A stretch of 64,000 bases of DNA from a virus: IMG/VR virus record IMGVR_UViG_3300028563_000016, positions 1-64,000 of that record, one strand, 5' to 3'. The notes below the pieces were generated by a model. It was given only the letters and a program-made list of their open reading frames with translations. It made no database searches and had not been told where the DNA came from. Of this stretch, positions 5,333 through 37,010 are shown one piece after another. The translations under genes and the position numbers were made by a program. The first letter of the stretch is position 1; each line of letters begins with the position of its first letter.

Positions 5333-5638
5333 TCATTGTGACACATCCTCAACTACATTTGTGATGTTTTTTGCAACGATTGCGACTGCGTCCCGTGATC
5401 TGATTAGTTCAGCGCAAAGAGAACGTATTTCAGGAGAATCATATAAGATTGGAGTGCTTGACACGTTTACGAGATTTTTGTAACAACTGTCAAGTTCATC
5501 TAACGCGTTTTCAATTGTTTCAAGCGTAGTTGATAACCTGTCTTGTTGTTCTGCACATTTTAGAAAAAGTTTTCGCGTAAGGAACGTTAATGACGTTGAA
5601 TACAAAATCAACAATATTATTGATAAAACAGTTAACAC
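5333..5638 (-). CDS. Membrane-anchored coiled-coil protein
   Basis: N-terminal hydrophobic helix followed by a heptad region. Confidence 0.55.
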   Translation of the reverse strand: MLTVLSIILLILYSTSLTFLTRKLFLKCAEQQDRLSTTLETIENALDELDSCYKNLVNVSSTPILYDSPEIRSLCAELIRSRDAVAIVAKNITNVVEDVSQ

Positions 5639-6804
5639 AATAAATCTCCAATCGCTGCATCGTATGATTTAAAAATTTCACTAAGCGCTAGTTTCTCAAC
5701 AATCTTTGGTTGAAGCTCGCGAGCCCATTGCGTTGGGATCTCTGAGCGCTCACGAAATTTTATCAATTTACTTTTGAAATCATGTTCAGATGCTTCTGCC
5801 CATCTCGCATTTTGCATAAAAATATTTGTATCAACACGTTGTGGTGGAATTTGTTGTAATGTATAATCAACCTTTACAAACTTTCCCAAGTTCAAAAACT
5901 CAGTGTGTGCGCTCCAATTCGTTGCAATGATTGGCAATCCTGACGCGGCAGCTTCACATGCGGGCAGGTTCCAACCTTCGCCTCGAGACAACGTCACCAT
6001 TGCTTTTATCTGCGGGTGTCTGTACAATGCTGCAACTTCGTCGTCGCTCATGTCGCCGTGAAGCAGTGTAACTTTAGGTTTTCCAGACCTGCGAACTTGT
6101 TTCAACAAGTCTTGTAACAGCTTCTTCGTGTTTGCTCGATCAATCTTGGTGTTCTTTCCAAGATTTGTCTTGATAACCAACCCTACATCGTCGTTACCCT
6201 TGAACGCCTCACAGAACCACTTGATCGTGTTGAAGATGTTCTTACGATCAGTACGTGCGTCTGCCGCTGTGAGTTGTCCGAACAATAAAAAGTTGAAAGG
6301 CGTCTCAAAGTCAGGCAACGTCAGGAGATCATTTTTTACGCACGCATCATTGTATGCTTCATTGACGACGTGTAGTGGTACGTTGACTGTGCCTGAATTT
6401 GTCAATGATGCTGCGGCATGCAAAGACGGCACGACGATTGCGTTCATCTTGTTACAAGCTTCAACCCACGTAGGATTACACCTATCGCACTCGACCATTG
6501 CCGACACGCCAATATTCACGTTACCAATGTCTGTCGTGAACTCGTTGGGCAACTTCACGTGAATTGCAACGTCAGCCTTTGTGGGAGGATTGCTGCGATG
6601 CATAATTTCACCGATGAGACCATCACAGGCGTTTTCATCTAAAATCCACGGGCATTGCCCCCACGGTGTGAGGTGGAATTTTACGTCAAGATTTGGTTTA
6701 GAAAGTAAAAATTTTGCAATCTGACGTCCATGCACAGAATATCCGGATTGTACACAAAGTGGACCAGAAAGAATTACGGTTTTCATAGTGTTATTGCCTC
6801 CCAA
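5632..6804 (-). CDS. Glycosyltransferase, GT-B/GT4-like
   Basis: SGYSVHGR, RKNI and SRGEGWNLPACEAAASGLPII (Ex7E); likely start at MKTVIL (6786). Confidence 0.9.
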   Translation of the reverse strand: MGGNNTMKTVILSGPLCVQSGYSVHGRQIAKFLLSKPNLDVKFHLTPWGQCPWILDENACDGLIGEIMHRSNPPTKADVAIHVKLPNEFTTDIGNVNIGVSAMVECDRCNPTWVEACNKMNAIVVPSLHAAASLTNSGTVNVPLHVVNEAYNDACVKNDLLTLPDFETPFNFLLFGQLTAADARTDRKNIFNTIKWFCEAFKGNDDVGLVIKTNLGKNTKIDRANTKKLLQDLLKQVRRSGKPKVTLLHGDMSDDEVAALYRHPQIKAMVTLSRGEGWNLPACEAAASGLPIIATNWSAHTEFLNLGKFVKVDYTLQQIPPQRVDTNIFMQNARWAEASEHDFKSKLIKFRERSEIPTQWARELQPKIVEKLALSEIFKSYDAAIGDLLC

Positions 6805-8042
6805 CGAGTATTATTTGGAAGCCGTTTATTTTTCCAATCATCAACAAGTTTTGTCAAAGTTTCATCCCACGTTGTTATAAGATTGTTCACGCTATACTCT
6901 TTACGAGTGTATTCCATTCCACGTAACCCAAGTTCTTTTCGTTTTTCTTCACCCATTTCATAAACTGTCATAAAAGCGTTTGCGAACGTTTTGTTTGAAC
7001 ACCAATCTTCATTTATCCAAGGAACAACTTGTGTTCCCCTGAGCGAGACTACTTCGGGTGTTATTGCGACGCCGTATTGTTCACCTGTTTCAACGTCTTC
7101 TATTTGGCGCGTGATGCCGCCGGTTTTAAGAGCTATATTTAAACGCCCGGTCATCCGAGATTCTAATAACGGCAAGCCAAATCCTTCTGCATTTGATCTA
7201 TTTACGACAACATCACACGCATTGTACAATGCGTTCATTTGTTCAAACCCAACACGATCGTTTGAGAATATAACATTGTCTTTCACATCAAACAACTCAA
7301 CGAGTGATTGTAAGTTTGGTCCCTCTTGATCAAAAGGATCAGTGTGCATCACCAACGTTGATTTTCTATGTCCGTATTTTTTTTCAAGTTCATCAAGAAA
7401 CATTTTGAACGAACACACTATGTCAGATGGATTTTTTCGATGCGCGTTGCGACTAACAAACAGTGGCATGAAGTGATCAACTCGTCCAGTACCAAAAAAC
7501 GCAAGCTTTGCATTTCGTGCATCTGCATCACTCATTGGAAAATACGTTTCTTTTGGAACAGCATGAGGCACGTATGAAGTTCTATCAGGAAACCATTCTT
7601 TCAAAAAAGAATACGCAACCCAATTGATACAATTCAATAAATCACAACTTTCATATAATGGTTTGTTGAACGTCGGTGCAGGATAGTTGTCCCACAACGT
7701 GTTGTATGCTATTGGACAAATTTGATGCACTTCGTCTTCATGAGCAAAGATGTGCATAAAAAAACGAGGATCAGTGAACAAAAGCATTACATCGGGTTTT
7801 TCAGATACCAATACTTGACGAATTAAATTTGGATCTCCAAACCCATTGATTGGCTTTATGATAAAGTCATCATTGACTACAATGGTGCGCATGTCTTCTT
7901 GTCTAAGGGCGGCTCCCAAACAACGAAACGTGAAACGTCCTGTCGATACTAATCCATTTATTAAAACACGACTTTGTGTCGCGACGCCCGACGTCGAAAG
8001 TTGCATGTCACTTATCATTAAAACTTTTATCTTTTGTGCCAT
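6783..8042 (-). CDS. Glycosyltransferase, GT-B/GT4-like
   Basis: SRNAHRKN; LYNACD..SNAEGFGLPLLE. Confidence 0.9.
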   Translation of the reverse strand: MAQKIKVLMISDMQLSTSGVATQSRVLINGLVSTGRFTFRCLGAALRQEDMRTIVVNDDFIIKPINGFGDPNLIRQVLVSEKPDVMLLFTDPRFFMHIFAHEDEVHQICPIAYNTLWDNYPAPTFNKPLYESCDLLNCINWVAYSFLKEWFPDRTSYVPHAVPKETYFPMSDADARNAKLAFFGTGRVDHFMPLFVSRNAHRKNPSDIVCSFKMFLDELEKKYGHRKSTLVMHTDPFDQEGPNLQSLVELFDVKDNVIFSNDRVGFEQMNALYNACDVVVNRSNAEGFGLPLLESRMTGRLNIALKTGGITRQIEDVETGEQYGVAITPEVVSLRGTQVVPWINEDWCSNKTFANAFMTVYEMGEEKRKELGLRGMEYTRKEYSVNNLITTWDETLTKLVDDWKNKRLPNNTRWEAITL

Positions 8043-8086: not shown

Positions 8087-8275
8087 ATGAAACTGACAAT
8101 TAGACAACTTCGTCAAACAATTCGTGAAGGACTTGCTGGTTCACAGCCCGAAGAAGACTATTCTAACGAGATTGTTGATGACAAATCTCTTGACGGTGAG
8201 AGCTTGCTTGTAAATGACGAAACAAAGAAAAGAATGCGAAAATATTTCAAAGCAATGGGACTTGCAACGCATTGA
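8087..8275 (+). CDS. Small probable virion protein
   Basis: N-terminal MKLTIRQLRQTIRE motif; ATATCTAT upstream. Confidence 0.5.
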   Translation: MKLTIRQLRQTIREGLAGSQPEEDYSNEIVDDKSLDGESLLVNDETKKRMRKYFKAMGLATH

Positions 8276-8283
8276 GGTGTATC

Positions 8284-8538
8284 ATGAAACGTTTTTTGTT
8301 TGTGTTCATGTTTTTACTTTCATCATGCTCACCAATGATATCTTGGCATGATAAGCAAATGGTAGCCACAATGCAGGTTGCTGGTAAATCATTAAGTTGT
8401 TTTAATTCACAATGTTGCTTTCCATACAAACACCACAAGGACGTGAAAAATGTACACGTCATGGTGTGTTCAGAACAACAACTTGACAAAGATGGTTTTC
8501 ACCAACTGAACGTTTCAACAAAAATATACTTTCGTTAG
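8284..8538 (+). CDS. Putative lipoprotein
   Basis: MKRFLFVFMFLLSSC lipobox-like signal. Confidence 0.5.
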   Translation: MKRFLFVFMFLLSSCSPMISWHDKQMVATMQVAGKSLSCFNSQCCFPYKHHKDVKNVHVMVCSEQQLDKDGFHQLNVSTKIYFR

Positions 8539-9107
8539 TTCACGAACGACTTGTCAACGTTCACCGTCAAGTGAAACGAGATTTCAATGTCATAACTCGT
8601 TGAAATAGTCAAATCTTTTGTTAGAGTTGCATCCAATACGACATTCAACGTCGTTTTACCGCTCTCAAGCAACTTTTTTACATCATCAAATTTTGCAGTC
8701 ACAGGAATAGAAATATAACTTGATGTTACTTCAACGTTTGTTAACGTATGTTTTACAAGTGCAATATTTGCTAAACTCGCTGAAAAATCGTTAATATTTT
8801 TCCAGCATCCAGGTGTTCCGCAATCGAGTTTCACTACGATGTCTGACAATGAATAACTTGCACCGTATTTAGCGCTGTCAAAATTCTTCAATTCATTGCT
8901 TACGTCAACGTCTGTTGACGCAGGTAAAGACACTTTTTCACTAAAATTCGCGGGTAAATAATTTTGGTATGACAGCTTTATTGGCATAATAAATGATTGC
9001 AAGCTTGCGGCGACATCAATGTGCTTTTTGACGATTATATCATCATCAAGAGACGCCGAAATACAACCAGTCGTAATTAGCGCAAGAATAACGAATATAT
9101 TTTTCAT
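8535..9107 (-). CDS. Putative lipoprotein
   Basis: MKNIFVILALITTGC lipobox; beta-rich body. Confidence 0.65.
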   Translation of the reverse strand: MKNIFVILALITTGCISASLDDDIIVKKHIDVAASLQSFIMPIKLSYQNYLPANFSEKVSLPASTDVDVSNELKNFDSAKYGASYSLSDIVVKLDCGTPGCWKNINDFSASLANIALVKHTLTNVEVTSSYISIPVTAKFDDVKKLLESGKTTLNVVLDATLTKDLTISTSYDIEISFHLTVNVDKSFVN

Positions 9108-9146
9108 TTTTGTTCCTTTACACGATTTTATATCACTATGATCAAA

Positions 9147-9401
9147 TTATAAGAATATCACCAATCCAAGTATATCGATTAATCCTGCAACGGGCATCAG
9201 CAAATATGCTATTATTGGATGAAAACACCAAAATAACGTCAACACTCCAAATACAACACCATGTATCATGAATTGTCGACCCACGCTTCTCCCAAAGTCT
9301 GACATCATCTCTTTTGCGAAAACATTATAACCACATATCCACATCACGATTGCGATACCAGAGACAAGAAAAAACACTTTTCCAAAAATTGACAACTTCA
9401 T
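9147..9401 (-). CDS. Small multi-pass membrane protein
   Basis: Three hydrophobic segments. Confidence 0.55.
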   Translation of the reverse strand: MKLSIFGKVFFLVSGIAIVMWICGYNVFAKEMMSDFGRSVGRQFMIHGVVFGVLTLFWCFHPIIAYLLMPVAGLIDILGLVIFL

Positions 9402-9443
9402 GATAGAATCAATCTATCATAAAATGCAACTTTTTACACTTTC

Positions 9444-10190
9444 TCAAAAGAATGAATTAAACCCAATCTTGAATGCGCCGCCAACGCGAGCGTGTAAGGA
9501 CGGATCGCCAACGACAATGTCGTCGTTATTCACCAGGTTGTTTATGTTGTGAGTCTTCACGTCAATCCAACTCACACCTGCGCGTAAAAAGAACCGAAAG
9601 CTCCTGCGATTTCCAAATTCCAACCCACAAAGGATTTGCTTGTAATCCCACCCAACAGAAGCGCCTTTGCTTGAAGGCATACTTCCTTGTGCAATGTGTC
9701 CAAATTCTGCTGTCAAGGTGGGTGCAATTGGAAAATTTATTGGATCGAACGTAAGCGACGCCGCGTATCCCAATTTTAGAACATAATTCGCCATTACATC
9801 AATGTGAACGAATTGAAATCCTGGGTGAATTGAAATTCCAACTTGGGGTCCTGACGGGACTCCAACACCCGACGTCAAGCCAACCCACTTGTTACGTTCT
9901 TTGGGAGGTAAAGTGATTGAACCACCGAACAATGTAACCCTTGAGGGTTGTTGCAAAACAGGTTGTACAATAATAGGTGGTGGCACAACTACGGGCGCTT
10001 GTTCGCGTTCGATAATGTTAAAAGCAAAATCTTCTTGCCCATCATCTTGTGTTGTCTCGTCGTCAGGTTGTTCAGTATCAAGTTGAATTCCGGAATTTTC
10101 TTCAATATTTGCATCAACAAGTTTTTGATCTTGCGCGTATGAAACACTTGAAATAAATAATAACGGCAAAAAAATAGTGATAAATTTCAT
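9444..10190 (-). CDS. Putative outer-membrane beta-barrel protein
   Basis: Sec signal ending SYA|Q, acidic/Pro linker, Gly/aromatic amphipathic strands, C-terminal Phe. Confidence 0.55.
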   Translation of the reverse strand: MKFITIFLPLLFISSVSYAQDQKLVDANIEENSGIQLDTEQPDDETTQDDGQEDFAFNIIEREQAPVVVPPPIIVQPVLQQPSRVTLFGGSITLPPKERNKWVGLTSGVGVPSGPQVGISIHPGFQFVHIDVMANYVLKLGYAASLTFDPINFPIAPTLTAEFGHIAQGSMPSSKGASVGWDYKQILCGLEFGNRRSFRFFLRAGVSWIDVKTHNINNLVNNDDIVVGDPSLHARVGGAFKIGFNSFF

Positions 10191-10291: not shown

Positions 10292-11029
10292 TCATGTTAA
10301 TTTTGCTTTTGCTTTCGCATATGCATTTAAAAATTTATCATCATTGTAATTAAATTCATTCGTTCCACGAAATAATTCGCAATCGTCAAACCCTTGCAAC
10401 GCAAACATGTGTGGAAATGATTTTACAAATACGGGTAAATTTTGTAATGCACGTAAAATTTTATCCCTTTTGTCAAATTGTCCTTTTAACCCACGATGAA
10501 TTCCATAGTGATATGCTTGAACGTTTGATAACATTGTTGCATGAGAACCCGCAGGAATTAGTGATTCTGGAAAGTTTCTGAAATTATCATGACGCATCGT
10601 CACGTTGTTTTTTGTGCACCTATCAGTGTATAAATTGTCAATTTTCACGTTCCATTCTACTTGCGTAGAATACACGTTCAATCCCATCACGTAATTGTTC
10701 GTCAAGTAATCGTAAAGAGGCGCTTGTAACGATGTGAATGTCTTTGTGTTATCACGCAGTGGAGCTAAATGTAAATTTAATATTTTTGTTGCATCGTCGA
10801 ACACATGATCATGTGCGAGTATTGTGTCAGCGTCGACTTGAATAAAAAAATCGTATTCACATTTTACTATGTTCCACGTTGAATACAATTCTTTTGCTGC
10901 ATCACGTTCTGATTTGTCTTTTACAAGATACTTTGAAACAATTACGTTCTTTTGTTCATCAATGAATTGTTGTGAACAATCAAACTCGTTTTCATTACAG
11001 TACATTGTACCAACAAAAATTTTGAACAT
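10292..11029 (-). CDS. Glycosyltransferase-like (GT-A fold)
   Basis: DxD motif FFIQVDAD. Confidence 0.6.
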   Translation of the reverse strand: MFKIFVGTMYCNENEFDCSQQFIDEQKNVIVSKYLVKDKSERDAAKELYSTWNIVKCEYDFFIQVDADTILAHDHVFDDATKILNLHLAPLRDNTKTFTSLQAPLYDYLTNNYVMGLNVYSTQVEWNVKIDNLYTDRCTKNNVTMRHDNFRNFPESLIPAGSHATMLSNVQAYHYGIHRGLKGQFDKRDKILRALQNLPVFVKSFPHMFALQGFDDCELFRGTNEFNYNDDKFLNAYAKAKAKLT

Positions 11030-11494: not shown

Positions 11495-12265
11495 TTATTT
11501 TAATTCATCACAAAGTGCTTGTAAATTAACCATGTTAAAATTATTTCCCGCCTGTAAACGAGCACTTGTTTGTTGTGGAAATGTGTGACACACGCCTTTA
11601 TCAATAAAACCAGAAACATACGTCATGTCTTTGTCTGCACAATCATACATGTGTTTTTCAAACATTTGCATAACATGACATGGATTTGGATAACCAATAA
11701 TTCTTTCAAAATCAAACGTTCGCCACAGTGTGGGACGCGATATTGGACGAAAATTTGATTTGTAAAAAGTGTGATTTCCAACGAATTGTTTGTCATAGTG
11801 AACAACGTTTTGGCATCTCACACCGACATGTGACACTGACTCGTGATTTATGTGTTTAGGTGTCGATAAACTATCATAACGTTTAATGTCATTGACATCA
11901 TATTCTGGAAGTCTAATACAGTTTACGTCTGGATTTTTATCCATGTATGACACGGCGTCTGCAACAAACGTTCCATCGTACACGACAAAATCATCGTACA
12001 TGTATGCAAAATATTTACATTTTAACGATTTTGCGCGCAGTAATGCAACGTAATGAGCTACAACATCAACCCATTTGTTATTCGCATTAAAATATTCATA
12101 ACACGTGTTAACAACTGAACGTGTTGGAGCGGCGTTATCAACGACTATGATGTGTGCGTCGTTTATTGTTTTAAGCGATTGATATGATTTTTCCCAAATA
12201 TCAAGTCGCTTAGCACGATTTACGTCTGTCAAGTACGACAACCACGATATGACGATTTTAGACAT
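11495..12265 (-). CDS. Glycosyltransferase-like (GT2/GT-A)
   Basis: IIVVDNA; YFAYMYDDF. Confidence 0.65.
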   Translation of the reverse strand: MSKIVISWLSYLTDVNRAKRLDIWEKSYQSLKTINDAHIIVVDNAAPTRSVVNTCYEYFNANNKWVDVVAHYVALLRAKSLKCKYFAYMYDDFVVYDGTFVADAVSYMDKNPDVNCIRLPEYDVNDIKRYDSLSTPKHINHESVSHVGVRCQNVVHYDKQFVGNHTFYKSNFRPISRPTLWRTFDFERIIGYPNPCHVMQMFEKHMYDCADKDMTYVSGFIDKGVCHTFPQQTSARLQAGNNFNMVNLQALCDELK

Positions 12266-13067
12266 GTGATAACACCGATCCGATAATTGTACTCGACGTC
12301 ATGTATTTTTCCCATGTGTACACACAATATTCGCTTCGAATTTTATAGTCATCACAAACTAAATCGACATAATTTGGCACGTCACCAGGTGTGTATTCAA
12401 TACAACATTCCAATATTTCTTTCTTCCAATACGAAGACGGTGGCACAAGTGATGGAATTCCCAAACACAGCGCTTCGTATGTTCCATGACGTGGACCTAT
12501 GCCATGCGGTTGCAACGTAAAATAAGAATTCATTAGTTCTTGAACGTAATTGTTTGTTCGCAATCCACTCATTTCAACAAACGTATCACCATACGCTGCT
12601 TTCGCTGAATTCACGTCCGCTTTGCGATCGTAAGCGTAGCAAGATGCATATCCGCCAAAGAACGCAACGAGGTGCTCACCACTTAAATTTTCTCGAAAAG
12701 CATGACGATTGTTTATGATGTGTGAGTACGCATCGTAATACGACCACGGAAAACACGTTAATAGCTCGCCTTTTATTTCGTCAATTTTCTCGTAAAAGTG
12801 TTTGCTACACGTCGGTGATAAGTTTGGCTTCACGTAAAAGAATTTTTTGTACCTGTTTCGTGCAGCGATGCACAAATCAAGTCTTTCAGTGCTCTCAACC
12901 TGACTGTCTAACACGCCGTCATGACACTCCCACCAGACTTCACAAGTTGGCATGTCCCACAACATCGTCTTTGCGACTATTTCTTGTCGTTGTTGCCATT
13001 CTTTGGGAATTGATGGTAGGAGATAATTGAAACGATGTGATGAGACGTAACAGATGTTATGCTGCAT
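12258..13067 (-). CDS. Glycosyltransferase-like (GT-B, exostosin/GT47-like C-terminus)
   Basis: Y..EL..S.FTLQPHG.G.RH..YEAL.LGIP. Confidence 0.55.
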   Translation of the reverse strand: MQHNICYVSSHRFNYLLPSIPKEWQQRQEIVAKTMLWDMPTCEVWWECHDGVLDSQVESTERLDLCIAARNRYKKFFYVKPNLSPTCSKHFYEKIDEIKGELLTCFPWSYYDAYSHIINNRHAFRENLSGEHLVAFFGGYASCYAYDRKADVNSAKAAYGDTFVEMSGLRTNNYVQELMNSYFTLQPHGIGPRHGTYEALCLGIPSLVPPSSYWKKEILECCIEYTPGDVPNYVDLVCDDYKIRSEYCVYTWEKYMTSSTIIGSVLSHV

Positions 13068-13113: not shown

Positions 13114-14230
13114 ATGATTATTTCGATATCTAATGTTGAACTATCTGGCACATTGACTGGTGATTTTAATGACACAACCACATTTCCAAAATATGATTTG
13201 CCATCAACAAACATTGTAATTTCTGCATCAATGGGTACTGATTTTTATCTTAACAAAGGATACGTTAACAACATCAAGTTATGTAACAATTTTGCCAATT
13301 GGATCGCTTGATAAACAAATAATTTCATTTTTAATCAATGACACAACGTATCAATATGACATTATCAATTCCGGAACGTTAAACACGAACACACTTTTTA
13401 GTAGTCATGTCAATGCACCCGTGAAAGTTGACGTTCAATTTAACGGAACTGACTGGGAATTAAATTCGTTTAAAAATTTATCATATACAAATTATACTGC
13501 ACCTTCAATTGATCCTACAAGTATTTCAGGACTTGTTCATTGGTATCGTTCAGATCAACTTGTTACATATGATGAAAATGGTATATCGTCATGGGACGAT
13601 CTTATTGGAAATGCAAACGGAATTCAAACAAATAACAACAATAAACCAACGTTTTATTCGTCATCAAGTTTAAATGGCCATCCAAAAATTAGATTTGGAG
13701 AAGGAACACCAATTATTAATCAATCGACAATGGACGCTTTAAATTTTTCAATAACATTAGCACAACCATATACAATTATTTTAGTTTGGCAAAGATGGAA
13801 TGATGTTGGATATAATAATAATGATGGTAGCACGGTACATTGGTCTATAATCGGCAGTTCAACTGGAGACATTGCATTACAAGAATATACCGACGTTCAT
13901 ACACGATGGAATTGTGGTGCAAATCTAACATATTCTTCATATTTAAATGATGCATATGATGTAGGTATTGACACATTTGGTGTAACAACACTCATTGGAA
14001 ATGGAACGTTATCAAAAATCATCAATAATGGAACAATACTTGCAACTGGTGATGCTGGAAATGCTGCATTTAATGGCTCAACTTATGCATTAAGTCTTGG
14101 TTCAAGAGGTGACGTATGGGGATGTAGTTACATTGACGCTGTTGAGATGTGTATTTTCAATAAATCATTAAATGATGCTGAAATTAGTGTATTACAACAA
14201 AATTACTTTCATGTTCGTTATGGCATCTAA
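13114..14230 (+). pseudogene. LamG/concanavalin-like lectin-domain protein split by a frameshift (ORFs 13114..13311 and 13292..14230)
   Basis: GLVHWYRSD..SSWDDLIGN and E..IFNKSL..EI..L..Y...YGI; the second frame is open from 13220, and removing one T at 13242-13246 fuses the ORFs into 371 aa. Confidence 0.65.
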
Positions 14231-23219: not shown

Positions 23220-23221
23220 TG

Positions 23222-26963: not shown

Positions 26964-26978
26964 TCACAAGATAACACG

Positions 26979-27009
26979 TTGTTGACACGTGAAACACGTG
27001 TGTCAATAA
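26979..27009. terminator. Imperfect hairpin between convergent genes (possible bidirectional terminator)
   Basis: TTGTTGACACGTG-AAA-CACGTGTGTCAATAA. Confidence 0.5.
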
Positions 27010-27013
27010 TGAT

Positions 27014-27957: not shown

Positions 27958-28256
27958 GTTAACATCTCCTGCCCACGCATGTACTCTTCACACACGTCAA
28001 CGATCTTTGCTTGTGGCAATTCTTCAAGCATGTCACCAATGCCAATTTCTTCCATGCGTCGTTGCATGGCACAATCTTTGCACAAGTATTCGTTTGGACA
28101 TTGGTGATTGTGAGCACGCAAGACGTACATCGCATGTGCTTGGCGAAGCATGTTACTTGATGGACACTTTTCGCTCGTACACTTCAACGTGAAGACTTGT
28201 AACAAATCGCGCACCAGAGACACGGGATACTGTTTATACCGTTTGATGTCAAGCAT
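27954..28256 (-). CDS. Cys-rich hypothetical protein
   Basis: CxxxxC and CxxC motifs; likely start at MLDIK. Confidence 0.45.
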   Translation of the reverse strand: MLDIKRYKQYPVSLVRDLLQVFTLKCTSEKCPSSNMLRQAHAMYVLRAHNHQCPNEYLCKDCAMQRRMEEIGIGDMLEELPQAKIVDVCEEYMRGQEMLT

Positions 28257-28512
28257 GTGACAGTCTTTCTTTGACGGTTTCAAGCCAATCACACAAAATT
28301 TGTTTATCAATTTCAGAAGTAGTTTCTGACGTCATTATGACTGAATTCAAAACGTCAATATTGTTTGCAAGCGGTTGACGTTGCTTTACATATTTCTTTT
28401 TGCTCCCGTGAGCACGTCTGTACTTGCGATTTTCGTGAAAAGGACCACAAACGAATTCATTAAAGTCGTTGTCACAAATTTCTGACGCAGGGAGAATTTC
28501 AGGAGGATGCAT
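28249..28512 (-). CDS. Hypothetical protein
   Basis: Overlaps its neighbours in the minus-strand run. Confidence 0.45.
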   Translation of the reverse strand: MHPPEILPASEICDNDFNEFVCGPFHENRKYRRAHGSKKKYVKQRQPLANNIDVLNSVIMTSETTSEIDKQILCDWLETVKERLSHA

Positions 28513-28667
28513 TTATAATCCTGTTCCAACGTAAAATTTCATTTAATTCTTTTTCAGTTATTTCAAGTTCAAGTCGTCGCATTAATTCTTTTCCAACATC
28601 AGAACGCAAATAATCAATTTCTTGAAGAAGTTCATCATTTGTTAATTTTGTGAGATCGTTCATATGT

Positions 28668-29423
28668 TTACCAATCACACGCATCTCTAACAAGATCTTT
28701 TTTGATAGCTAAAACTTGACCATAATTTATATCTTCATCTGCTAACTGTCTCTCGTCTACAAAAATTCTCCTGTCAAGTCTGATAATTTCAGCTTCTTTA
28801 TATCCTTCTTTATCCCAATCAATCGTGTTGATAAAATCTGCGCATTTAATTCCTGGATCGTCTTTCGACGGGAGATGATAATCATCCATCAACACTGCGC
28901 TATTCACAAGCACCTTCGTTCCCTCCCAATCTGCCTTCGTGCCCTCGAACGAGTGATCAGCATCGATGTACGCAAAGTCGAACTTCTCACCCTTCTCAAT
29001 GAGCTGTGCCAAGACTGCTTGCGACGGGCCCTTGACAAAGGTGATGTTCTCAAACCACTCTTTCGGAAACACGTTCTGAAGCTGTTCAAAGAAGTTCTTG
29101 TCAGTTGCGATGTCCATCGTCAAGATTTTTCCCTTGACGCCCATGTCGTAGAACGCCTTTGCGACACAGAACGTAACGTAGCCGCGGCCCGTGCCGACCT
29201 CGAGGAACGACTTGAAACCATACTGCTTCACGAGGTAGTAAACGAGAATTCCTCGTTCATAATTGCTTCGATAATAACACCCAACAGATTTATAAAGAGG
29301 ATCACCGGGTGAACGAGTTCTCTTGGCTGTAAACTCCGCAATTTGATCGAAGTCGCCAAGACAAATGTCTTCAACATTAACGCAAAGTTCAGCGAGTTTA
29401 TCTTTAATGTGTACTATTTTCAT
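28668..29423 (-). CDS. SAM methyltransferase (Methyltransf_24-like)
   Basis: FLEVGTGRGY, FDFAYIDADHS.E....D and LMDDY. Confidence 0.9.
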   Translation of the reverse strand: MKIVHIKDKLAELCVNVEDICLGDFDQIAEFTAKRTRSPGDPLYKSVGCYYRSNYERGILVYYLVKQYGFKSFLEVGTGRGYVTFCVAKAFYDMGVKGKILTMDIATDKNFFEQLQNVFPKEWFENITFVKGPSQAVLAQLIEKGEKFDFAYIDADHSFEGTKADWEGTKVLVNSAVLMDDYHLPSKDDPGIKCADFINTIDWDKEGYKEAEIIRLDRRIFVDERQLADEDINYGQVLAIKKDLVRDACDW

Positions 29424-29941
29424 GTTTGCTCCAACAATTTCAAAATTTCATTGTCACACTCTTCAGAAATTTCATCCCATAGTGACTTATATTTTACGTT
29501 GTCCAACGTACGTACAGAACCATTTTTGTTCCAAGGTTTGTCAAGCAACACAATTTCAGCGAACGGCACAAATTCATTGTTTTCAATGTATCCGACGACA
29601 GCATCTTCGTTCGTTTCATTCTTATAAAATGACAAAATGCCAACGTATGTACCAATTTTTGGCCTCTCACTATCAAAATTTGGTCGATACAAACATGAAC
29701 ACTCAACTAACATCAACGTGTTGTCTGACACTTTTACAACAAAATCGGCGGGAGATTTTTTAGTTTCCCGACAGTACTCATTACATGCGTCTATTAGAAC
29801 CTCTGACAAGCACTCATACCACTCACGAATTGAACCACGAAACACGTATCCCGACGATATGATCGTTTCATTTGGTTCTCCCGTGTGTTTATCAACAAAA
29901 TTACCAGGCTGACACGAAAAATACATTTTCTTCATGTACAA
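29420..29941 (-). CDS. Stand-alone fragment resembling a gp23-type major capsid protein (A-domain/C-terminal part)
   Basis: PGNFVDKHTG, FRGSIREWYE.L.E.LID.CNE..R.T.K..ADFVV, YVGILS and VVGY..FVPF follow the gp23 motif order. Confidence 0.55.
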   Translation of the reverse strand: MYMKKMYFSCQPGNFVDKHTGEPNETIISSGYVFRGSIREWYECLSEVLIDACNEYCRETKKSPADFVVKVSDNTLMLVECSCLYRPNFDSERPKIGTYVGILSFYKNETNEDAVVGYIENNEFVPFAEIVLLDKPWNKNGSVRTLDNVKYKSLWDEISEECDNEILKLLEQT

Positions 29942-30084
29942 AATACTAATCTGTCGATGACAACGGGTACAAAATACGCATCAAAACGCCACTGTATACA
30001 TGATAAATCCCATTGCACACCAAATGCACACAAGAACTATCGCACCAATCAAAAATTGTTTATCGTCTTTTTTCGACAGGAACA

Positions 30085-30390
30085 TTAAATTAGCTCCTCC
30101 CTGCACTTCTTACAATTGTCGTTCGACCACAAGAAGTGTATCCACCCCAACGAAAACGTGCAGTGACAACCATCATAATACAGGTGATAAGAACCCCAAT
30201 GAAAATATTTCGTGATGCTGATCAAATAGTTCACTGAGTGATTATCATGCCATTTATTGCCATGCTTTGACTTATGCTGGTGAATGAAACCCGCATAAAA
30301 TTTCCCGATTTGAAACGTCCACCTGAACGCTAACGGGTAATATTCACCTATGCGAGTTTCAGGGACTTCTTTAGATTTCCAGAATATCAT
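30085..30390 (-). CDS. Hypothetical protein (aromatic/His-rich)
   Basis: 101-aa ORF overlapping the upstream stop. Confidence 0.5.
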   Translation of the reverse strand: MIFWKSKEVPETRIGEYYPLAFRWTFQIGKFYAGFIHQHKSKHGNKWHDNHSVNYLISITKYFHWGSYHLYYDGCHCTFSLGWIHFLWSNDNCKKCREELI

Positions 30391-30848
30391 TCTTCCTCGT
30401 AGTTGTCAATAGTTTCTTGCACAAGTTTCCAAAATTCAAGCGTGTCATCGTCATCAAGAGGAATTAGTCTCTTATTTCCGATTCGTTTCGAGTAATAATT
30501 TATGATGCGTGTAGTCGCATTCCGACGTCTGCCATCATCTATTTTTGACATCTTTACTTGAACTTTTTTGAAAGCCTTTTCTTTGTTGAACGATCCTTTG
30601 ACTTCGTGAAAGTATGCTCTCGCGAAACTATCAAGAAGTCTGGACACTTCGTTGAACAGCCAATGATCGTAGTCTTGTTGCACACAAAGCGAATTTTTAC
30701 GTGCCAATCGTGCTTTGTAGAATTCTCGTATTGCTCCAGTGAGGTATTCCAATAAATTATCAGTCCACACTTCTTGCGTGTGCGCTTTTTCCATGAGAAG
30801 CATTTTCTTAATGGCTTCTCGCAACAGCGTCTCTTCATATTTTGTCAT
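30387..30848 (-). CDS. Hypothetical, probable head-internal protein
   Basis: N-terminal LLREAIKKMLLME; TAGTTTAT upstream. Confidence 0.5.
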   Translation of the reverse strand: MTKYEETLLREAIKKMLLMEKAHTQEVWTDNLLEYLTGAIREFYKARLARKNSLCVQQDYDHWLFNEVSRLLDSFARAYFHEVKGSFNKEKAFKKVQVKMSKIDDGRRRNATTRIINYYSKRIGNKRLIPLDDDDTLEFWKLVQETIDNYEEE

Positions 30849-31003
30849 GTGAACATTATAAACTAATCGCGACAAAATTACACGTCATTGTATTGCGTGT
30901 AGAAGAAAGCCGAGCAAGAAACCAAACACGCTTCCCACGAGCACTCCCACTACGGGCCACCTGCGAAATATATCTGACAACGACGGTGTTTCAAATGAAA
31001 AAC

Positions 31004-31228
31004 TCATGACATTTCGACTTTCTCATCATTGATGGTGATTGTTTTAAAAAATCGAAAGTCATTGGCATCATACATTGGCGGTGAAATCTCTATAACGTAT
31101 TGTTTATTGGGAACGCGTTTTAGTTCAGGCGTAGATGCATCTTGCGCTTCTGATAGGCTACCAACACGAGGTTCTACGTTTGAAAGAATAGAACCCAATA
31201 CGTTTAATTGTTCATATGTTAATTTCAT
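31004..31228 (-). CDS. Hypothetical protein
   Basis: 74-aa ORF coupled to the upstream gene. Confidence 0.45.
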   Translation of the reverse strand: MKLTYEQLNVLGSILSNVEPRVGSLSEAQDASTPELKRVPNKQYVIEISPPMYDANDFRFFKTITINDEKVEMS

Positions 31229-32001
31229 AATAACTCCTTTTGAACGCTTCCATAATCAATGTTCAAATCTTCTAACTTCTTCTTGTCATAAATCACAAGT
31301 TTCATTGTCGGATTTGAATTCCGAATGTGATCAAGTTTGTCACGTTGTTCCCAACTCCAAAACGCGCCCTTGACGTCGACGTGTTCGTTAGTAGACGGGA
31401 GAAAGAAGTCTGGATAGTAAGAGCGAGTTGCGCCATCGGGAGTTGTGTATGGAAACCTGCCTCGGTGAGCAACGTAGTCAATGTTATTTGCGTCGAAGTA
31501 ACGAGCGACTGCGACTTCCCACGTGCCTTGAAGCTTCACTATCTCGCCGGATGGCTTTGTGTGAGCGTACCACTTGCACTTTCCGACGGGCACATTGTCG
31601 TACTTGCCGTCTAGCCAGGCTTGACGACGTTGCTGAGCATGTTGTTCTCTAAAAATAGGATCATTTGCAAACTTTTCTTTTCGAGTTTTAGATTGTTTTG
31701 CGCGAGCATCAGGCTGTTTCATCCCATTTTTATCGCCGACATTAACTTCGTTTCGAATTAGTCCTTTACTAATATTTTCAGCCCATTCAGGATGTGTGGC
31801 TTTTGAACGATAAACTTTACCACGTGCAGGATTATTTGTCGAAGCCCACACTTTATAACACATACGATTACAAAAACGACGTTCACGATGTTTGTAGCGT
31901 ACAAATTCTTTTGTGCCACACACTATGCATGTGACCTCGACTTCGGGATGTCTAGACATCACGTTTTCTATACGCCCTTCCAACCATTTTTTCCCAATCA
32001 C
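31225..32001 (-). mobile_element. Free-standing PD-(D/E)xK homing endonuclease with Zn-finger and NUMOD-like region
   Basis: CIVCG..FCNRMC, QGTWE and YYPDFFLP...VDVKG. Confidence 0.75.
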
Positions 32002-32914
32002 GATGTTCAGGTGGTACCAATTCTAAATTTTTATCTCGTATAGCTTCCATCAACTTTGGTTTCATCCCAACGGCATTTGACATGAAAACCATCGCAGAGA
32101 GGTCTTTCGGGAAACAATGGCCGCGGCCTCCGGGAATGCCATTTTCACCAGGTACATTCATGTGTGTGCCACCAAGACGAGGATCAAGCTTTGCGTATTC
32201 AACGATTTTATCGTAATCAACGTTATATCCTAACTCATCAAGTTTATTTGCTATTTGCCACAGTTCACAACTCAATACAACACGAGCCATGAGTTGAATA
32301 TTTGTGAAATACTTTACAAATTCAGCCGTTGAACTACTTGTCTTGATAATTGGTACGTTTGGAAATGCGGTTTGAAATAATTGTTTAACAACATTGATAT
32401 AAGGACGAGGCCCACCGAGAATTATGCGATTTTGATTTCGCATGTCGTCAACAGCGTTCTTTTCTGTTAAAAATTCAGGGCTGAAGCAAATTCGAAGTCC
32501 AGTATTTTCATACTTTTTATTCCACTTTTCAGTACTTCCAGGAGGAATTGTACTTTTTACAACAACAATATGATTTCCTGGGATGACGGCGAATTCTTCA
32601 AGAACACTTTCAACAATTGAAAGATCACATTCGCCGTCATCCCACATTGGCGTTGGAAGACAACAAAAATAAATTCCCGAAAACCCTTCCTTCGGTGAAC
32701 AGCTCTCGACTAACTCTCGAATGTTTTCAACGTTTCTATAATCAGGAGCTCCTGAACAATCAGTAAAATATCGTATTTGTGCTTTTTCAGCACCCACGGC
32801 ACACTTGCCTGCTTTGTCGTAGTTATAAACAGTCAGTCCACGCTCAACTAATACTTGAGCAAGTGAACCACCCACAAAGCCCGCACCTATCACTGCAACC
32901 GATGTCTTTGTCAT
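31952..32914 (-). CDS. UDP-glucose/GDP-mannose dehydrogenase family (short form)
   Basis: GAGFVG, CLPTP, VVKSTIPPG, SPEFL.E, AEFVKY..N, DPRLG and GHCFPKD. Confidence 0.93.
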   Translation of the reverse strand: MTKTSVAVIGAGFVGGSLAQVLVERGLTVYNYDKAGKCAVGAEKAQIRYFTDCSGAPDYRNVENIRELVESCSPKEGFSGIYFCCLPTPMWDDGECDLSIVESVLEEFAVIPGNHIVVVKSTIPPGSTEKWNKKYENTGLRICFSPEFLTEKNAVDDMRNQNRIILGGPRPYINVVKQLFQTAFPNVPIIKTSSSTAEFVKYFTNIQLMARVVLSCELWQIANKLDELGYNVDYDKIVEYAKLDPRLGGTHMNVPGENGIPGGRGHCFPKDLSAMVFMSNAVGMKPKLMEAIRDKNLELVPPEHRDWEKMVGRAYRKRDV

Positions 32915-32947
32915 GTAGTAGAATTTATGCTACACAAGAGCACGTGT

Positions 32948-33457
32948 TCACTTAATTGGCCACCACTCAGGAACTTTTGTTCTTGGCTCCCACGCAGCAA
33001 ATTTTGCCTTTTCACCCACGTAGTAGTTTCTGTACGCTTGCACTGCATCATCGTGATTTCTGTACTTTTCCGGCATTGCTTGCGCAAAGGGCGAGTGATG
33101 CTTGAAGTTTCCGCATCGATAAAATTCTTCACCCGCGAACTCTGACGCGCACTCGATGACGCGCTGCGACGCATGAACCCGCTTGTAGCGACGCGTGTAC
33201 TCGTCACAGAGCTCGAGCGAGTGCTTCACAAGCCAGTCAAAGTTGTCAGACGTTGCCATGGCCCACCTGACGCATGGGTGATGCTTGTGCGTCGGTTTGT
33301 ACAGACAACACGCGTATTCAGAATAACGTATGGGATCCCGAAGGTGTATTGCAGTCGACAAGATTTGGGCGCTTTCGCAAACCATTTTCACAACGTGGCG
33401 ATTGCACTGCATTTGTGCTGCTTCATGAGGATCTGACGACAAAATAAAAATGTTCAT
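32948..33457 (-). CDS. Pyrimidine-dimer DNA glycosylase-like protein (DenV-related)
   Basis: MNIFIL, HVVKM..E.AQ.LST, H.HHPC..W, EY..RY...H, QAMP and AYR.YY. Confidence 0.85.
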   Translation of the reverse strand: MNIFILSSDPHEAAQMQCNRHVVKMVCESAQILSTAIHLRDPIRYSEYACCLYKPTHKHHPCVRWAMATSDNFDWLVKHSLELCDEYTRRYKRVHASQRVIECASEFAGEEFYRCGNFKHHSPFAQAMPEKYRNHDDAVQAYRNYYVGEKAKFAAWEPRTKVPEWWPIK

Positions 33458-33533
33458 TTTTTAATTTTATCACGTTTTGCCGATATAATAAACTCGTAAA
33501 TCACACAAATTACTATTGGCACGACGTAGATCA

Positions 33534-33713
33534 TCACAGACCACAGTGTTCGCACTCAGTAATTAACCCATCGCCAGAACTTTGTGATAGAAAGTCTATC
33601 GTGATCTTTCTGAGAAGCTTGCTGACAGACGTGTCCTTTGCTTTTGCGATTGTGACTAATTTTTCATAGTGTTCATCTGATAAACGTAATGTAGCTGAAC
33701 TTTCATAATTCAT
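33534..33713 (-). CDS. Ribbon-helix-helix (CopG/Arc-like) DNA-binding protein, 59 aa, missing from the track
   Basis: Translates as MNYESSATLRLSDEHYEKLVTIAKAKDTSVSKLLRKITIDFL...CEHCGL; GGGAAAGAG upstream. Confidence 0.7.
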   Translation of the reverse strand: MNYESSATLRLSDEHYEKLVTIAKAKDTSVSKLLRKITIDFLSQSSGDGLITECEHCGL

Positions 33714-33880
33714 GATAATATCTCTTTCCCTCTACAACATGGGGATAATAACATTCTTACCCGTAGTTTTTCACTGTTTACAAAAAAAATAAAAGATACT
33801 AAATATACAACACTTTTGAAACTTGTCCCTCATACTTATAAAAAGATGCCAGAAATGGCAAGAAAGAAAGAAAAAATAAT

Positions 33881-34582
33881 ATGGCAACAGTACTAACACC
33901 CATGCCCGGACAAACAGTCGTGTCTTCAGACGATAATGACGATCGACGGAACCGTGGTTACGAACATCGCGAGAATTTCGACAAGCGAGAACACTGGATC
34001 GACCAGCAAATTCTTGACAACCGCAAGGCGATTTCGGCTGACAATACTGTCATTCAAACTAATCAGTTTGCAATCGAAGGTCGGTCTTTAGTCGAGGCTG
34101 CGAAGAATGCGGCTGCACAGAGTCTAGAAAGCGCGAAAAACGCTGCTGCTCAAATTTTAGAAAGTGCGAAAAACACTGCGGCTTTGGACGTTCAAGCCGA
34201 GAAAAATGCTGCTGCACTAGGCGTTCAGGCTGAAAAACTGTCAGCGTCGCGTGAAGTTCAAGCGGAAAAAATTGCGGCTGCGTCTCTTGTCAACAGCTTG
34301 ACCCTGAATTCAGCAACTAACGTGCTTATTCAGACTAAGGCTGATGCGGCCACGTTGTTTGCTGCACAGAATGCTGCCTCTATCACCGCACAGATGGCGA
34401 CTTGTTGTTGTGAACTGAAAGAAGCAATTCGCGATGACGGTGATCACACTCGAGACGACATTGATGACCTCGAAGAGAGAATCAATGCCATTGAAAGTTT
34501 GAGGAATGCCGTTGATCTCGTTGATGCCAAGAACGAAATCACACTTTTGAAGACGAAGTTACCGACCGGTACTGTCGTCTAA
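33881..34582 (+). CDS. Ala-rich 11-residue-repeat coiled-coil protein with a CCCE motif
   Basis: Repeats E(S/A)AKNAAAQ(S/I)L and QAEKNAAALGV; QMATCCCELKE. Confidence 0.75.
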   Translation: MATVLTPMPGQTVVSSDDNDDRRNRGYEHRENFDKREHWIDQQILDNRKAISADNTVIQTNQFAIEGRSLVEAAKNAAAQSLESAKNAAAQILESAKNTAALDVQAEKNAAALGVQAEKLSASREVQAEKIAAASLVNSLTLNSATNVLIQTKADAATLFAAQNAASITAQMATCCCELKEAIRDDGDHTRDDIDDLEERINAIESLRNAVDLVDAKNEITLLKTKLPTGTVV

Positions 34583-34626
34583 ACTGACCCGTGTGACAGT
34601 GGGTTAACTGTCACTAAATAAGAATG

Positions 34627-34662
34627 ACAAAGCTCTTGCGAAAGTGAGAGCTTTGTGTTTTT
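34627..34662 (+). terminator. Rho-independent terminator (a second hairpin lies at 34593-34614)
   Basis: ACAAAGCTCTTGC-GAAA-GTGAGAGCTTTGT followed by GTTTTT. Confidence 0.75.
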
Positions 34663-34674
34663 AATAGAACGACA

Positions 34675-35007
34675 ATGAAAAATAAACAAAAATACGAACC
34701 AAGCAAAACATACATTGAACTGTTGGCATTACGAAAAGAAATCGCCACAATAAAAAATGGACATAAATATCAAAAACAAATCGTCGTAAATAAAAATCCA
34801 CATCCATGCACGAACGTCATGATGAACATTGCGTACGAATTATCTCAACCACAAATTGATGAAACACCAACACAACACATTGAAGAAACTATGAGTTCTG
34901 TTTCACCAAATGCATTGCGATTTTTAACAAAAGATGAACTTGAAACATTGAAAAAAGAAGAAGTCGTGCAACAAGTCAAAAAACGTGGACGAAAACGAAA
35001 AGTTTAA
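34675..35007 (+). CDS. Hypothetical protein with a basic C-terminus
   Basis: 110-aa ORF ending KKRGRKRKV. Confidence 0.5.
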   Translation: MKNKQKYEPSKTYIELLALRKEIATIKNGHKYQKQIVVNKNPHPCTNVMMNIAYELSQPQIDETPTQHIEETMSSVSPNALRFLTKDELETLKKEEVVQQVKKRGRKRKV

Positions 35008-37010
35008 TCTTTCACGCATAGTGGTTCTTGTTTTGTTACACGAATACATGGCGTTTGAGAACCATCCCAATTTCGATGAAACACCCAACCACCAATTTGT
35101 TCAAGTTCTGAAGCGCGGCGTTTGATCATTTCATCAGTCACTTGTGACCACGAAACATCAAAAAACATGTTATGTTCAGCGTCATCGACGTAACTGTTGT
35201 TAGTAAGGACGTTCCAATGCCTGCTCCAGAAATCACGATATAGGCGAATTTTTCTCTCAATGTCAACCCATGAGTAATGAAACACTCCAGGTAATTCGTT
35301 CACGTAAGCATTGAACCACTGTTCGTATGCAGCTAATGCGTTCTTGTCGCCTTGCAATGCTTTTGCTTGTGCATGTCGTGCATCGTTTGGCACGGCAGTC
35401 ACGAATGGAACGCGTAGACCGGTATCTCTGAACACCATGTCACACCCGTCGCTGCCACCTTTGCAATAAAGGTTTCCTTCATCATCTGTTGCGCGTAATT
35501 CGAGAGGGATGCCATGTGTCACTGTGTGGCATTGATCGTTCATTGACAAGCGCCATTTTTCAGGCGGAATATCTACGCGCACTTTTCCATTTTTCACCGG
35601 GCCCCACCATTCTACGACCGGTAAAGAAATTCCATCAATTCCATTATTTTTCATGTACTCACATAATGGAAGAATTTTCTTTGCATCGTCTTCTGACACG
35701 ACTTCGTCAACGTCCATCTGCCAACAGTAATCACCTGTGCACATGTCACGAGCTTCTGCTTTTTGCATGCCATCGAAGAGTGCAGATTGCTTTGAGTTCC
35801 AGTCGCGTGGAATTATCTTGACACGCACTTTACCACGTTTTACACCAAACCATTCGTCTGGAAATTCATACGGTTCACCCGTGTTTTTGCAATGTAGCAT
35901 TGCCTCTGCGTATAATCCTAACGTAAAGTGACAATCACAATCTCCTGGATATGCGAGCCAAATTAATTCGTTTAATGTTGTGTCGGTTGAACCACCATCA
36001 ACTACACACACTTCATCACAGAATTGTAACATTGAACGAATGCACGCTTCGAAAGGATATTGTTGAGATATACAATTGTACGTTGTGCAATAACCAGAAA
36101 TTGTTATGTTATTTGTTTCTATTTCACGAATGTTATCCCAAAATAATTGATGAGCATTTTGAAGATACGTTTCAATGTAATCAATACGTTCGTTAAACCA
36201 ATGTTCATCCTTGTGTTGAACAAACTTGTTCAAAACAAGTTCACAATTTAGCAATTTTCCTTCAATACAAAACCTCGGACATGTATCTGGTCCCGATGGA
36301 AGATATACGATACCTTTTGATTTTGACAATTTCTCCAATAGTTGATCATATGGCAAATTCCAAACAACTTCATATTTAATGTCATTTTTTTCGCAATATT
36401 GTTTTGCATTCTCAAAGCCTTTAACCCAACTTTGAGAACCCAACACAATCCACGTATCACTTTTTGTGTTTTCTCTTAGTAATTTGATTTTGTCAAGAGT
36501 TTTCTGATCAAAGACTGATGACAACACATCACTGTTTCGAGACAGCTGGGGAAAATTATCAAGATACACTTGTCTCTGTTTTTCTGACATGAACCATAGT
36601 TGTTTTGCATTTGAGAAGAAACTCGAAATTAATCTCCCGATGTCTTGAGTTGCACAGTCACATTTTCCAGTTTTTTCTATGTGAAGCTGTGGCAAACGAT
36701 ACAGACAAAATTTATAGTCAAATTCACAAACAACATATTTCAAAAATTTCGAGATCACCGGTAACAGTTGTGGATTAATTGTCGAGAAATTTCCAAACAC
36801 AAATATTTTGTTTATGTTGTTTTTTATGATTTGCTCAGTTATGTCACGAGCATGTAATTTAAAGTAAGCATATGGACACGAAGACATGATTGCCGCTAAC
36901 GTTGCTTCTGCGCCACCAAAATATTCATGTTCAAATAAATCTGATACAAACACGACACGTGTTTCTGGAGGGATCAGCATTGTCTGTTTTGACAAATCAA
37001 TAAAGTTCAT
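35004..37010 (-). CDS. Two-domain glycosyltransferase (GT-B + GT2)
   Basis: GGAE, WVKG and DTCPR..IE.KLL, then ISGY.TTYN, DEVCVVDGGSTD and WQMDVDE. Confidence 0.88.
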   Translation of the reverse strand: MNFIDLSKQTMLIPPETRVVFVSDLFEHEYFGGAEATLAAIMSSCPYAYFKLHARDITEQIIKNNINKIFVFGNFSTINPQLLPVISKFLKYVVCEFDYKFCLYRLPQLHIEKTGKCDCATQDIGRLISSFFSNAKQLWFMSEKQRQVYLDNFPQLSRNSDVLSSVFDQKTLDKIKLLRENTKSDTWIVLGSQSWVKGFENAKQYCEKNDIKYEVVWNLPYDQLLEKLSKSKGIVYLPSGPDTCPRFCIEGKLLNCELVLNKFVQHKDEHWFNERIDYIETYLQNAHQLFWDNIREIETNNITISGYCTTYNCISQQYPFEACIRSMLQFCDEVCVVDGGSTDTTLNELIWLAYPGDCDCHFTLGLYAEAMLHCKNTGEPYEFPDEWFGVKRGKVRVKIIPRDWNSKQSALFDGMQKAEARDMCTGDYCWQMDVDEVVSEDDAKKILPLCEYMKNNGIDGISLPVVEWWGPVKNGKVRVDIPPEKWRLSMNDQCHTVTHGIPLELRATDDEGNLYCKGGSDGCDMVFRDTGLRVPFVTAVPNDARHAQAKALQGDKNALAAYEQWFNAYVNELPGVFHYSWVDIERKIRLYRDFWSRHWNVLTNNSYVDDAEHNMFFDVSWSQVTDEMIKRRASELEQIGGWVFHRNWDGSQTPCIRVTKQEPLCVKD

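Follow-up and report, generated by a model that had tools for sequence, protein, structure and literature searches.

A glycan-assembly region with a conserved frame and exchangeable cassettes in an uncultured huge phage of the rhizosphere

Glycosyltransferases and decorating enzymes of the region

The stretch analysed here (the window) covers the leading 64 kb of a linear 75.7-kb contig from an uncultured huge phage, IMG/VR record IMGVR_UViG_3300028563_000016. Approximately 31 kb of it, between 5.6 and 37 kb, is given to enzymes that transfer or decorate sugars. What the window holds here is the phage's version of a glycan-assembly region common to its clade. Its genes, named below by their first nucleotide position, are listed in Table 1. 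All of the enzymes are encoded on the minus strand, as a preliminary description of the sequence had stated, and none is predicted to contain membrane-like segments. CheckV rated the contig 22% complete, which implies a genome of ∼340 kb of which ∼78% is unseen.

The preliminary description counted ∼11 glycosyltransferase (GT)-like genes, of which seven were recovered with Pfam, a GT call being a profile score that reaches the gathering threshold (23587 falls just below it). Four of them (5632, 6783, 15579 and 20574) passed the cut-off for Glycos_transf_1 or Glyco_trans_1_4 (CAZy GT4-like). The operon leader, the two-domain protein GT668, matches GT2 over a short segment of its C-terminal half. 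This half is GT2-like; its DxD-type residues D433, D435 and E436 are invariant in homologs, and the family profile also matches the GT2 motif of chondroitin synthase. The N-terminal half is a Cys-rich domain of ∼290 amino acids (aa) that gave no match to PDB sequences, either as a single sequence or as a profile.

Structural comparison supports 12258 as an eighth GT. The Atlas model of this exact protein aligned over its full length to GT-B clusters (GT4 and exostosin/RXYLT1) with TM scores of 0.68–0.80, and its feature neighbours in the Atlas bear RXYLT1_C, exostosin or Glyco_trans_1_2 domains. Only two sequence homologs of 12258 were found, both in the close relatives. The three other genes of the original count, 10292, 11495 and 14184–15129, are unproven as GTs. 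Neither 10292 nor 11495 matched a GT2 profile; the lead for 10292 is a neighbouring Atlas cluster in which 17% of the members carry GT2. AlphaFold2 models built from three-sequence alignments were poor for both 12258 (confidence score pLDDT 33) and 11495 (pLDDT 41), and the weak Foldseek matches of the latter were nearly all to GT-A folds, none of them at E ≤ 0.001.

The gene at 14184–15129 is broken by a frameshift. Its two pieces align to residues 25–188 and 186–321 of an intact 324-aa metagenomic protein (P0003), and neither the pieces nor this homolog matched a GT family, a Pfam family or, convincingly, a PDB entry. Kinship between the 12258 family and the intact homolog was considered and rejected, as hhalign detected none. 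The A10 run is covered at ∼41× word depth in the source run, and a contig from another rhizosphere run (X3) carries TA inserted behind 14630, which restores the reading frame. It follows that the break is not fixed but reflects either a polymorphism or an error of assembly. The broken gene at 14623–15213 has a G+C content of just 26%.

Table 1. Features of the glycan-assembly region and inserted or mobile genes.
Feature	Position	Strand	Basis or remark
GT668, 668-aa two-domain protein, operon leader	35004–37010	−	Pfam GT2, residues 395–449 only
Short UDP-glucose-dehydrogenase-family protein, 320 aa	31952–32914	−	Pfam N-terminal and central domains
O-methyltransferase dependent on S-adenosylmethionine (SAM), solid	28668–29423	−	Methyltransf_24, Methyltransf_3
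GT2 glycosyltransferase	27014–27799	−	Pfam 39 bits, DGDD motif
Probable class I SAM methyltransferase, variable	24517–25464	−	Weak UbiG/BioC matches, E ∼1e-3
GT-B (GT1-type) glycosyltransferase	23587–24516	−	Pfam 26.8 bits (cut-off 27); D-x7-E variant motif
Two small paralogs (123 and 136 aa), one on each side of a 185-aa Gly/Ala-rich protein	22304–23632	−	Regular operon family
GT4-type glycosyltransferase	20574–21530	−	Pfam above cut-off; D-x7-H motif variant
TobZ/NodU/CmcH-type O-carbamoyltransferase, variable cassette	17933–19678	−	Pfam N- and C-terminal domains; full length
GT4-type glycosyltransferase	15579–16541	−	Pfam; canonical E-x7-E
Left-handed beta-helix (LbH, hexapeptide) acyltransferase-like protein	15126–15572	−	Weak LbH/Hexapep matches
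Frameshifted gene, A10 run at 14630–14639	14184–15129	−	Two pieces match intact homolog P0003
GT-B fold protein, exostosin/RXYLT1-like	12258–13067	−	Atlas structure and feature search; no Pfam match
Candidate GT-A fold protein, YDD motif, regular operon member	11495–12265	−	Low-confidence AlphaFold2 model
Candidate GT-A fold protein, VDAD motif	10292–11029	−	Atlas lead only
248-aa protein, signal peptide and C-terminal Phe as in outer-membrane barrels	9444–10190		
84-aa protein, three membrane-like segments	9147–9401		
Lipoprotein-type signal protein	8535–9107		Envelope protein in region
Lipoprotein-type signal protein	8272–8538	+	Envelope protein in region
Adjoining GT4-type pair, 419 and 390 aa	5632–8042 (5632–6804, 6783–8042)	−	Pfam; E-x7-E in both
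Homing-endonuclease-type genes	16633–17148, 45355–46245, 56839–57744, 55132–56010, 31225–32001, 62554–62973; L006 4495–5322		

Among the decorating enzymes, the NodU/CmcH carbamoyltransferase is complete, as had been claimed: both Carbam_trans_N and Carbam_trans_C are matched (65 and 211 bits) and a GxxALGNRS motif is present. Residues 103–573 align to PDB 7xb6, and the nearest solved enzymes are NovN, TobZ and GdmN. The relatives that a search of IMG/VR returned are only 28–41% identical and show no synteny. A 77-aa open reading frame (ORF; 19633–19866) overlaps the start of the gene. Two SAM methyltransferases had been proposed; 28668 is firmly assigned, and the matches of 24517 are weak.

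The proposed UDP-sugar dehydrogenase retains its NAD-binding and central domains (83 and 50 bits), and in an alignment with UDP-glucose dehydrogenase (UGDH; PDB 3vtf) its HCFPKD motif falls on the catalytic SCFPKD. The C-terminal UDP-binding domain (PF03720) was not found in any of the six frames of the contig at E ≤ 1, which makes the uronic-acid-containing glycan of the preliminary description doubtful. We considered whether the protein had been truncated by the downstream TnsA-like gene and rejected this, because the two closest relatives (G001 and G002) keep a 318–321-aa form with a 261-aa ORF behind it, and because short forms, 275–325 aa in length, constitute a large family. An exhaustive search returned 186 clusters at E < 1e-30; most of the best 150 are 250–325 aa long, and 115 of these 150 keep the Cys motif.

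A fixed frame and exchangeable cassettes

Full-length homologs of GT668 form > 1098 clusters at ∼50% identity, on contigs of up to 345 kb. GT668 is present in 331 IMG/VR contigs at the head of a co-directional glycan operon, which we examined in 80 fetched loci. Downstream of GT668 and on the same strand, homologs of 27014 occur in 64–65 of these loci, usually directly after GT668, followed in frequency by 20574 (59–60), 23587 (52–53) and 15579 (45–48). The small-protein family of 22304/23222 is found in 50 loci, often in two copies. Less frequent members are the O-methyltransferase (26–33 loci), the 11495 family (21), the carbamoyltransferase (11–12), the short dehydrogenase (9) and 10292 (5); no homolog of 15126 was found in the 80 loci. 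The elaborate build-and-decorate oligosaccharide pathway foreseen in the preliminary description is supported, and the recurrence of this operon in hundreds of contigs from related phages strengthens it. The carbamoyltransferase and dehydrogenase that the description included are strain-variable accessories (each in ∼9–12 of the 80 loci).

Several families common in these loci have no copy in the window, specifically a Polysacc_synt_2 4,6-dehydratase (47/80), a DegT aminotransferase (15/80), a sugar nucleotidyltransferase (13/80), extra GT2 genes and a PfkB kinase. Gene orders in these loci are typically compact; one of them runs from GT668 through nucleotidyltransferase, GT2, small protein, GT4, GT4, carbamoyltransferase and GT-B to an 11495-family gene. 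On the opposite side of GT668, homologs of 37210, ClpP, helicase and PhoH are conserved.

The synteny comparison across relatives that had been proposed earlier shows which parts of the region are fixed. The Pfam GT1/GT2 genes of six near-complete relatives are, with few exceptions, confined to one region. All six carry GT668, and all six carry the 6783/5632 pair, adjacent, in the same order and at 37–58% identity. Likewise, a homolog of a 485-aa protein (1010–2467) lies ∼1.5–2.5 kb past the GT pair in all six. The fixed frame consists of GT668 at one end and the GT4 pair at the other, and four more GTs are widely shared. Between the ends are swappable genes, here the carbamoyltransferase, one or two methyltransferases, the acyltransferase-like protein and the short dehydrogenase; relatives carry radical-SAM enzymes, the 4,6-dehydratase, the DegT aminotransferase or the nucleotidyltransferase as alternatives. 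The three strictly conserved GTs provide a clear experimental handle.

Exchange of cassettes is seen directly in G001 and G002 (both from IMG/VR), which are syntenic with the window from 8 to 34 kb at 75–85% DNA identity. Both lack the carbamoyltransferase. In G002 its slot (L008 5587–7894) is occupied by two radical-SAM enzymes (one of them SPASM), a Methyltransf_23 protein and two uncharacterised proteins. Also missing from both relatives are the HNH gene 16633, ORF 29420 and a 2.1-kb insert to which 14184–15129 belongs, and G002 in addition lacks the 24517 methyltransferase. Conversely, both have an extra ORF of ∼385 aa, and both encode an ORF similar in size to 15126 (150–151 aa) at the matching place. 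The dehydrogenase is 52–56% identical in these relatives, compared with ∼85% for neighbouring genes.

The same borders reappear within the habitat. Contigs from rhizosphere runs diverge from the window at 13048, ∼15497, 16661/16694 and 20555/20556, and three of these four break points are at or near borders seen against G001 and G002, indicating that the variants coexist in one habitat. Conserved flanks with cassette turnover between them, the pattern of host-recognition-cluster islands, were found in the two closest relatives, among the rhizosphere variants and in the 80 loci. The G+C content is 40–47% across much of the region (18000–36000) and 29–37% in the adjoining core genes (36000–58000), a contrast that fits a mosaic origin of the cassettes.

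Candidate acceptors of the glycan

Four acceptors were weighed. We tentatively favour the phage's own virion proteins, followed in order by DNA, the host envelope and a soluble product. According to the favoured reading, soluble enzymes would assemble an oligosaccharide stepwise in the cytoplasm from nucleotide sugars, the oligosaccharide would then be O-carbamoylated and methylated, and, with one or more virion proteins as acceptor, a strain-specific glycan coat would result. This reading is in line with the lack of membrane-like segments in the enzymes and with the absence of initiating transferase, flippase and polymerase genes among the contig ORFs scanned with Pfam. Three near-complete relatives without a thymidylate synthase (TS)-like gene keep their GT668 operons, which makes the conserved GTs independent of a known DNA base handle. 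Moreover, the conserved GT pair adjoins the 485-aa protein, which a motif may link to the late genes: the gene for a 120-aa coiled-coil protein has a start-proximal TAnTTAT motif as at the terminase gene, and that of the 485-aa protein follows 6 nt later (1010–2836). No Pfam or PDB match was obtained for the 485-aa protein, a candidate for a late or virion protein that may itself accept the glycan. The PglF/PseB-type dehydratases and DegT aminotransferases that relatives carry are typical of protein-glycosylation and O-antigen sugars.

Four points weigh against virion proteins. None was identified in the window. The glycan genes do not carry the terminase-type start-proximal motif, and so may not be late genes, which weakens the argument from the 485-aa protein. 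TS-family genes occur in 10 of 14 relatives of ≥ 45% completeness, and the two of them that were tested are hydroxymethylase-like, which keeps DNA a live acceptor. Finally, soluble GT4 and GT2 enzymes also act on lipid-linked O-antigen intermediates. The known precedents are glycans on mycobacteriophage capsids and tail tubes (Freeman 2023, as cited in PMC12619734) and the clade-specific fibril glycosylation clusters of the Megavirinae (PMC10117803). Both rely on soluble virus-encoded GTs and rare-sugar pathways, are clade-specific and use no host lipid carrier. They resemble the present region in logic only. If virion proteins are the target, phage self-glycosylation would extend far beyond the mycobacteriophages.

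The strongest competitor, although we consider it rather unlikely, is DNA hypermodification. The unseen 78% of the genome would encode an enzyme for replacing cytosine with 5-hydroxymethylcytosine (5hmC), the GTs would build the decorated glycan on top, and type IV restriction enzymes of the host would drive cassette turnover. Precedents exist for the chemistry: phage clusters of GT-A and GT-B enzymes related to lipopolysaccharide GTs modify DNA with glycans (bioRxiv 10.1101/2023.12.21.572611; PMC13326640), attaching mono- to trisaccharides to 5hmC (bioRxiv 10.1101/2023.12.21.572611), and a carbamoyltransferase of the same family and superfamily as the one here carbamoylates 5hmC (PMC8670742). 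The lack of the terminase-type motif at the glycan genes also speaks for DNA, as do the hydroxymethylase-like genes in most of the well-covered relatives. Of the two TS-family homologs that were tested, the one in G003 (L094 1414–2175) scored 247 bits with T4 dCMP hydroxymethylase and 48 with thymidylate synthase, and the one in G004 (L093 1471–2472) scored 142 bits with the CMP hydroxymethylase MilA, to which it is far closer than to thymidylate synthases. In the six near-complete relatives, Pfam GT1/GT2 genes are nearly all in the region and none is beside the hydroxymethylase (the T4 alpha/beta-GT families were not searched), so any glycosylation of 5hmC would have to use the GTs of the region.

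On the other hand, the preliminary description had noted no base-handle enzyme in the window, and no TS-like, TET/JBP or C5-methylase gene was found in the whole 75.7 kb. The GT668-led operon is retained in three relatives (93%, 93% and 100% complete) in which there is no TS-like gene; no C5-methylase was found in these three, and no TET/JBP gene in the two searched for it. Where a hydroxymethylase is present, it is > 100 kb from the operon. The carbamoyltransferase also differs from the 5hmC enzyme: at the positions of TobZ residues 421 and 423 it has Gly and Arg (RALGNR), as do eight clade homologs with a readable motif, and the proven 5hmC enzyme, the one published sequence compared, has Cys and Thr (PMC8670742). 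TobZ position 408 is Trp in neither of the two. Furthermore, carbamoyltransferases flanked by GT group 1 came from unmodified contigs (PMC8670742), and at least seven GTs are more than for any known DNA glycan. That the 331-contig clade as a whole builds a carbamoylated, methylated multi-sugar glycan on its own 5hmC DNA, with cassettes reshuffled between strains, appears improbable to us. Such a glycan, made by the three-GT frame, would exceed every known DNA hypermodification in complexity by a wide margin, and a DNA target would in any case take base hypermodification to a new level. That hydroxymethylase-like genes are unevenly distributed over the clade is a new observation, and it makes DNA versus virion a question open to testing. 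Judging from these genes, the DNA of at least part of the clade probably contains hydroxymethylated cytosine.

Remodelling of the host envelope comes third and is, in our estimate, unlikely. The enzymes would modify lipid-linked O-antigen, capsule or core during infection, and so change the cell surface, for example to block competing phages or to prevent progeny from adhering to debris. O-antigen and capsule clusters usually contain GT4 and GT2 enzymes together with a dehydratase, an aminotransferase and a nucleotidyltransferase, and four envelope proteins are encoded inside the region: two resemble lipoproteins, a third has three membrane segments, and the fourth combines a signal peptide with a C-terminal Phe. 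Similar islands of pelagimyophages and cyanomyophages were published as O-chain modification; they are non-syntenic, and their GT, UDP-glucose dehydrogenase and radical-SAM cassettes differ among close relatives (PMC7029224). Comparable clusters are those of Pelagibacter phage HTVC008M, in which a GT, a methyltransferase, a Nol-like carbamoyltransferase and a UGDH are side by side, and of Synechococcus phage S-SCSM1, with an annotated carbamoyltransferase, epimerases and five GTs.

In contrast to lipid-carrier O-antigen and capsule clusters, the ORFs scanned with Pfam on this contig (22% of the genome) lack an initiating phosphoglycosyl transferase, a flippase or ABC transporter, a polymerase and a ligase; the preliminary description had likewise seen no flippase or polymerase in the window. 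The 37–58% identity of GT668 and the GT pair in the six relatives favours a phage-borne acceptor if the hosts differ, although a conserved lipid acceptor fits as well. The region shares with the published host recognition cluster (PMC7029224) its large-phage setting, its richness in GTs and its variable cassettes. It differs in that tblastn with GT668 found nothing among 50,697 GenBank phage records, that no tail-fibre gene was identified inside it, and that the habitat is the rhizosphere. The carbamoyltransferase is only 28–30% identical to the full-length HTVC008M and S-SCSM1 matches and < 40% identical to any phage match, and the fixed three-GT frame is not described in PMC7029224.

A soluble product, such as a small aminoglycoside-like or peptide-linked glycoconjugate with no macromolecule decorated, is very improbable: the nearest solved carbamoyltransferases tailor antibiotics, and G002 carries its two radical-SAM/SPASM enzymes and a methyltransferase in the carbamoyltransferase slot, but no scaffold-forming enzyme or exporter was seen, and a soluble metabolite poorly explains the strict conservation of three GTs in a lytic-type huge phage.

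Hypervariable glycan islands (PMC7029224) and core GT orthogroups of jumbo phages (PMC12619734) have already been published. The latter are four putative orthogroups, of function not known, within the core gene set shared by moraphages, aquatic jumbo phages that resemble the present one in gene content (PhoH, Clp, primase, exonuclease and T4-type virion genes); operon structure and cassette turnover are not given there (PMC12619734). What is added here is a rhizosphere member with an insertion-stretched operon, cassette variants coexisting in one habitat, and a family of short dehydrogenases. Large phages of water and soil repeatedly give tens of kilobases to sugar chemistry.

Habitat, inserted genes and envelope proteins

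The stretch was found in public runs, every one of which is a 2019 rhizosphere metagenome; no RNA run is listed among them. The contig encodes a T4-type large terminase, a primase, an SbcC-like exonuclease, an RNA ligase, ClpP, PhoH and a split helicase. The closest matches of the exonuclease are in Microcystis phage Mel-JY01 (27% identity) and huge metagenomic phages. Against GenBank phages, the window gave no nucleotide match with megablast, and the 1235-aa and 485-aa proteins, like GT668, gave none with tblastn. A scan of 25.3–37.4 kb for sigma-70 promoters and terminators returned the same counts as shuffled sequence.

The operon in the window is lengthened by unrelated insertions and homing-endonuclease genes. 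Specifically, the enzyme block is interrupted by denV, ligase-like, SLOG, HNH and TnsA-like genes and by the four envelope proteins. Of the homing-endonuclease-type genes of Table 1, three are HNH paralogs, one is of the GIY-YIG type and three are TnsA-like/DUF7487. The absence of the HNH gene 16633 from the two closest relatives is as expected of a mobile gene. The product of 13292–14230 has a weak match to a PHROG annotated as virion structural protein (E 7.5e-6).

All four envelope proteins (8272–10190) have homologs in G001. From their sequence features, they could be superinfection-exclusion or host-envelope factors. We infer a Gram-negative host because of the two lipoprotein-type signals and the signal-peptide protein with a terminal Phe. 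In G001 an IS605-type TnpB gene with a Cas12f-like TNB domain (L007 15539–16597) adjoins the envelope-protein genes.

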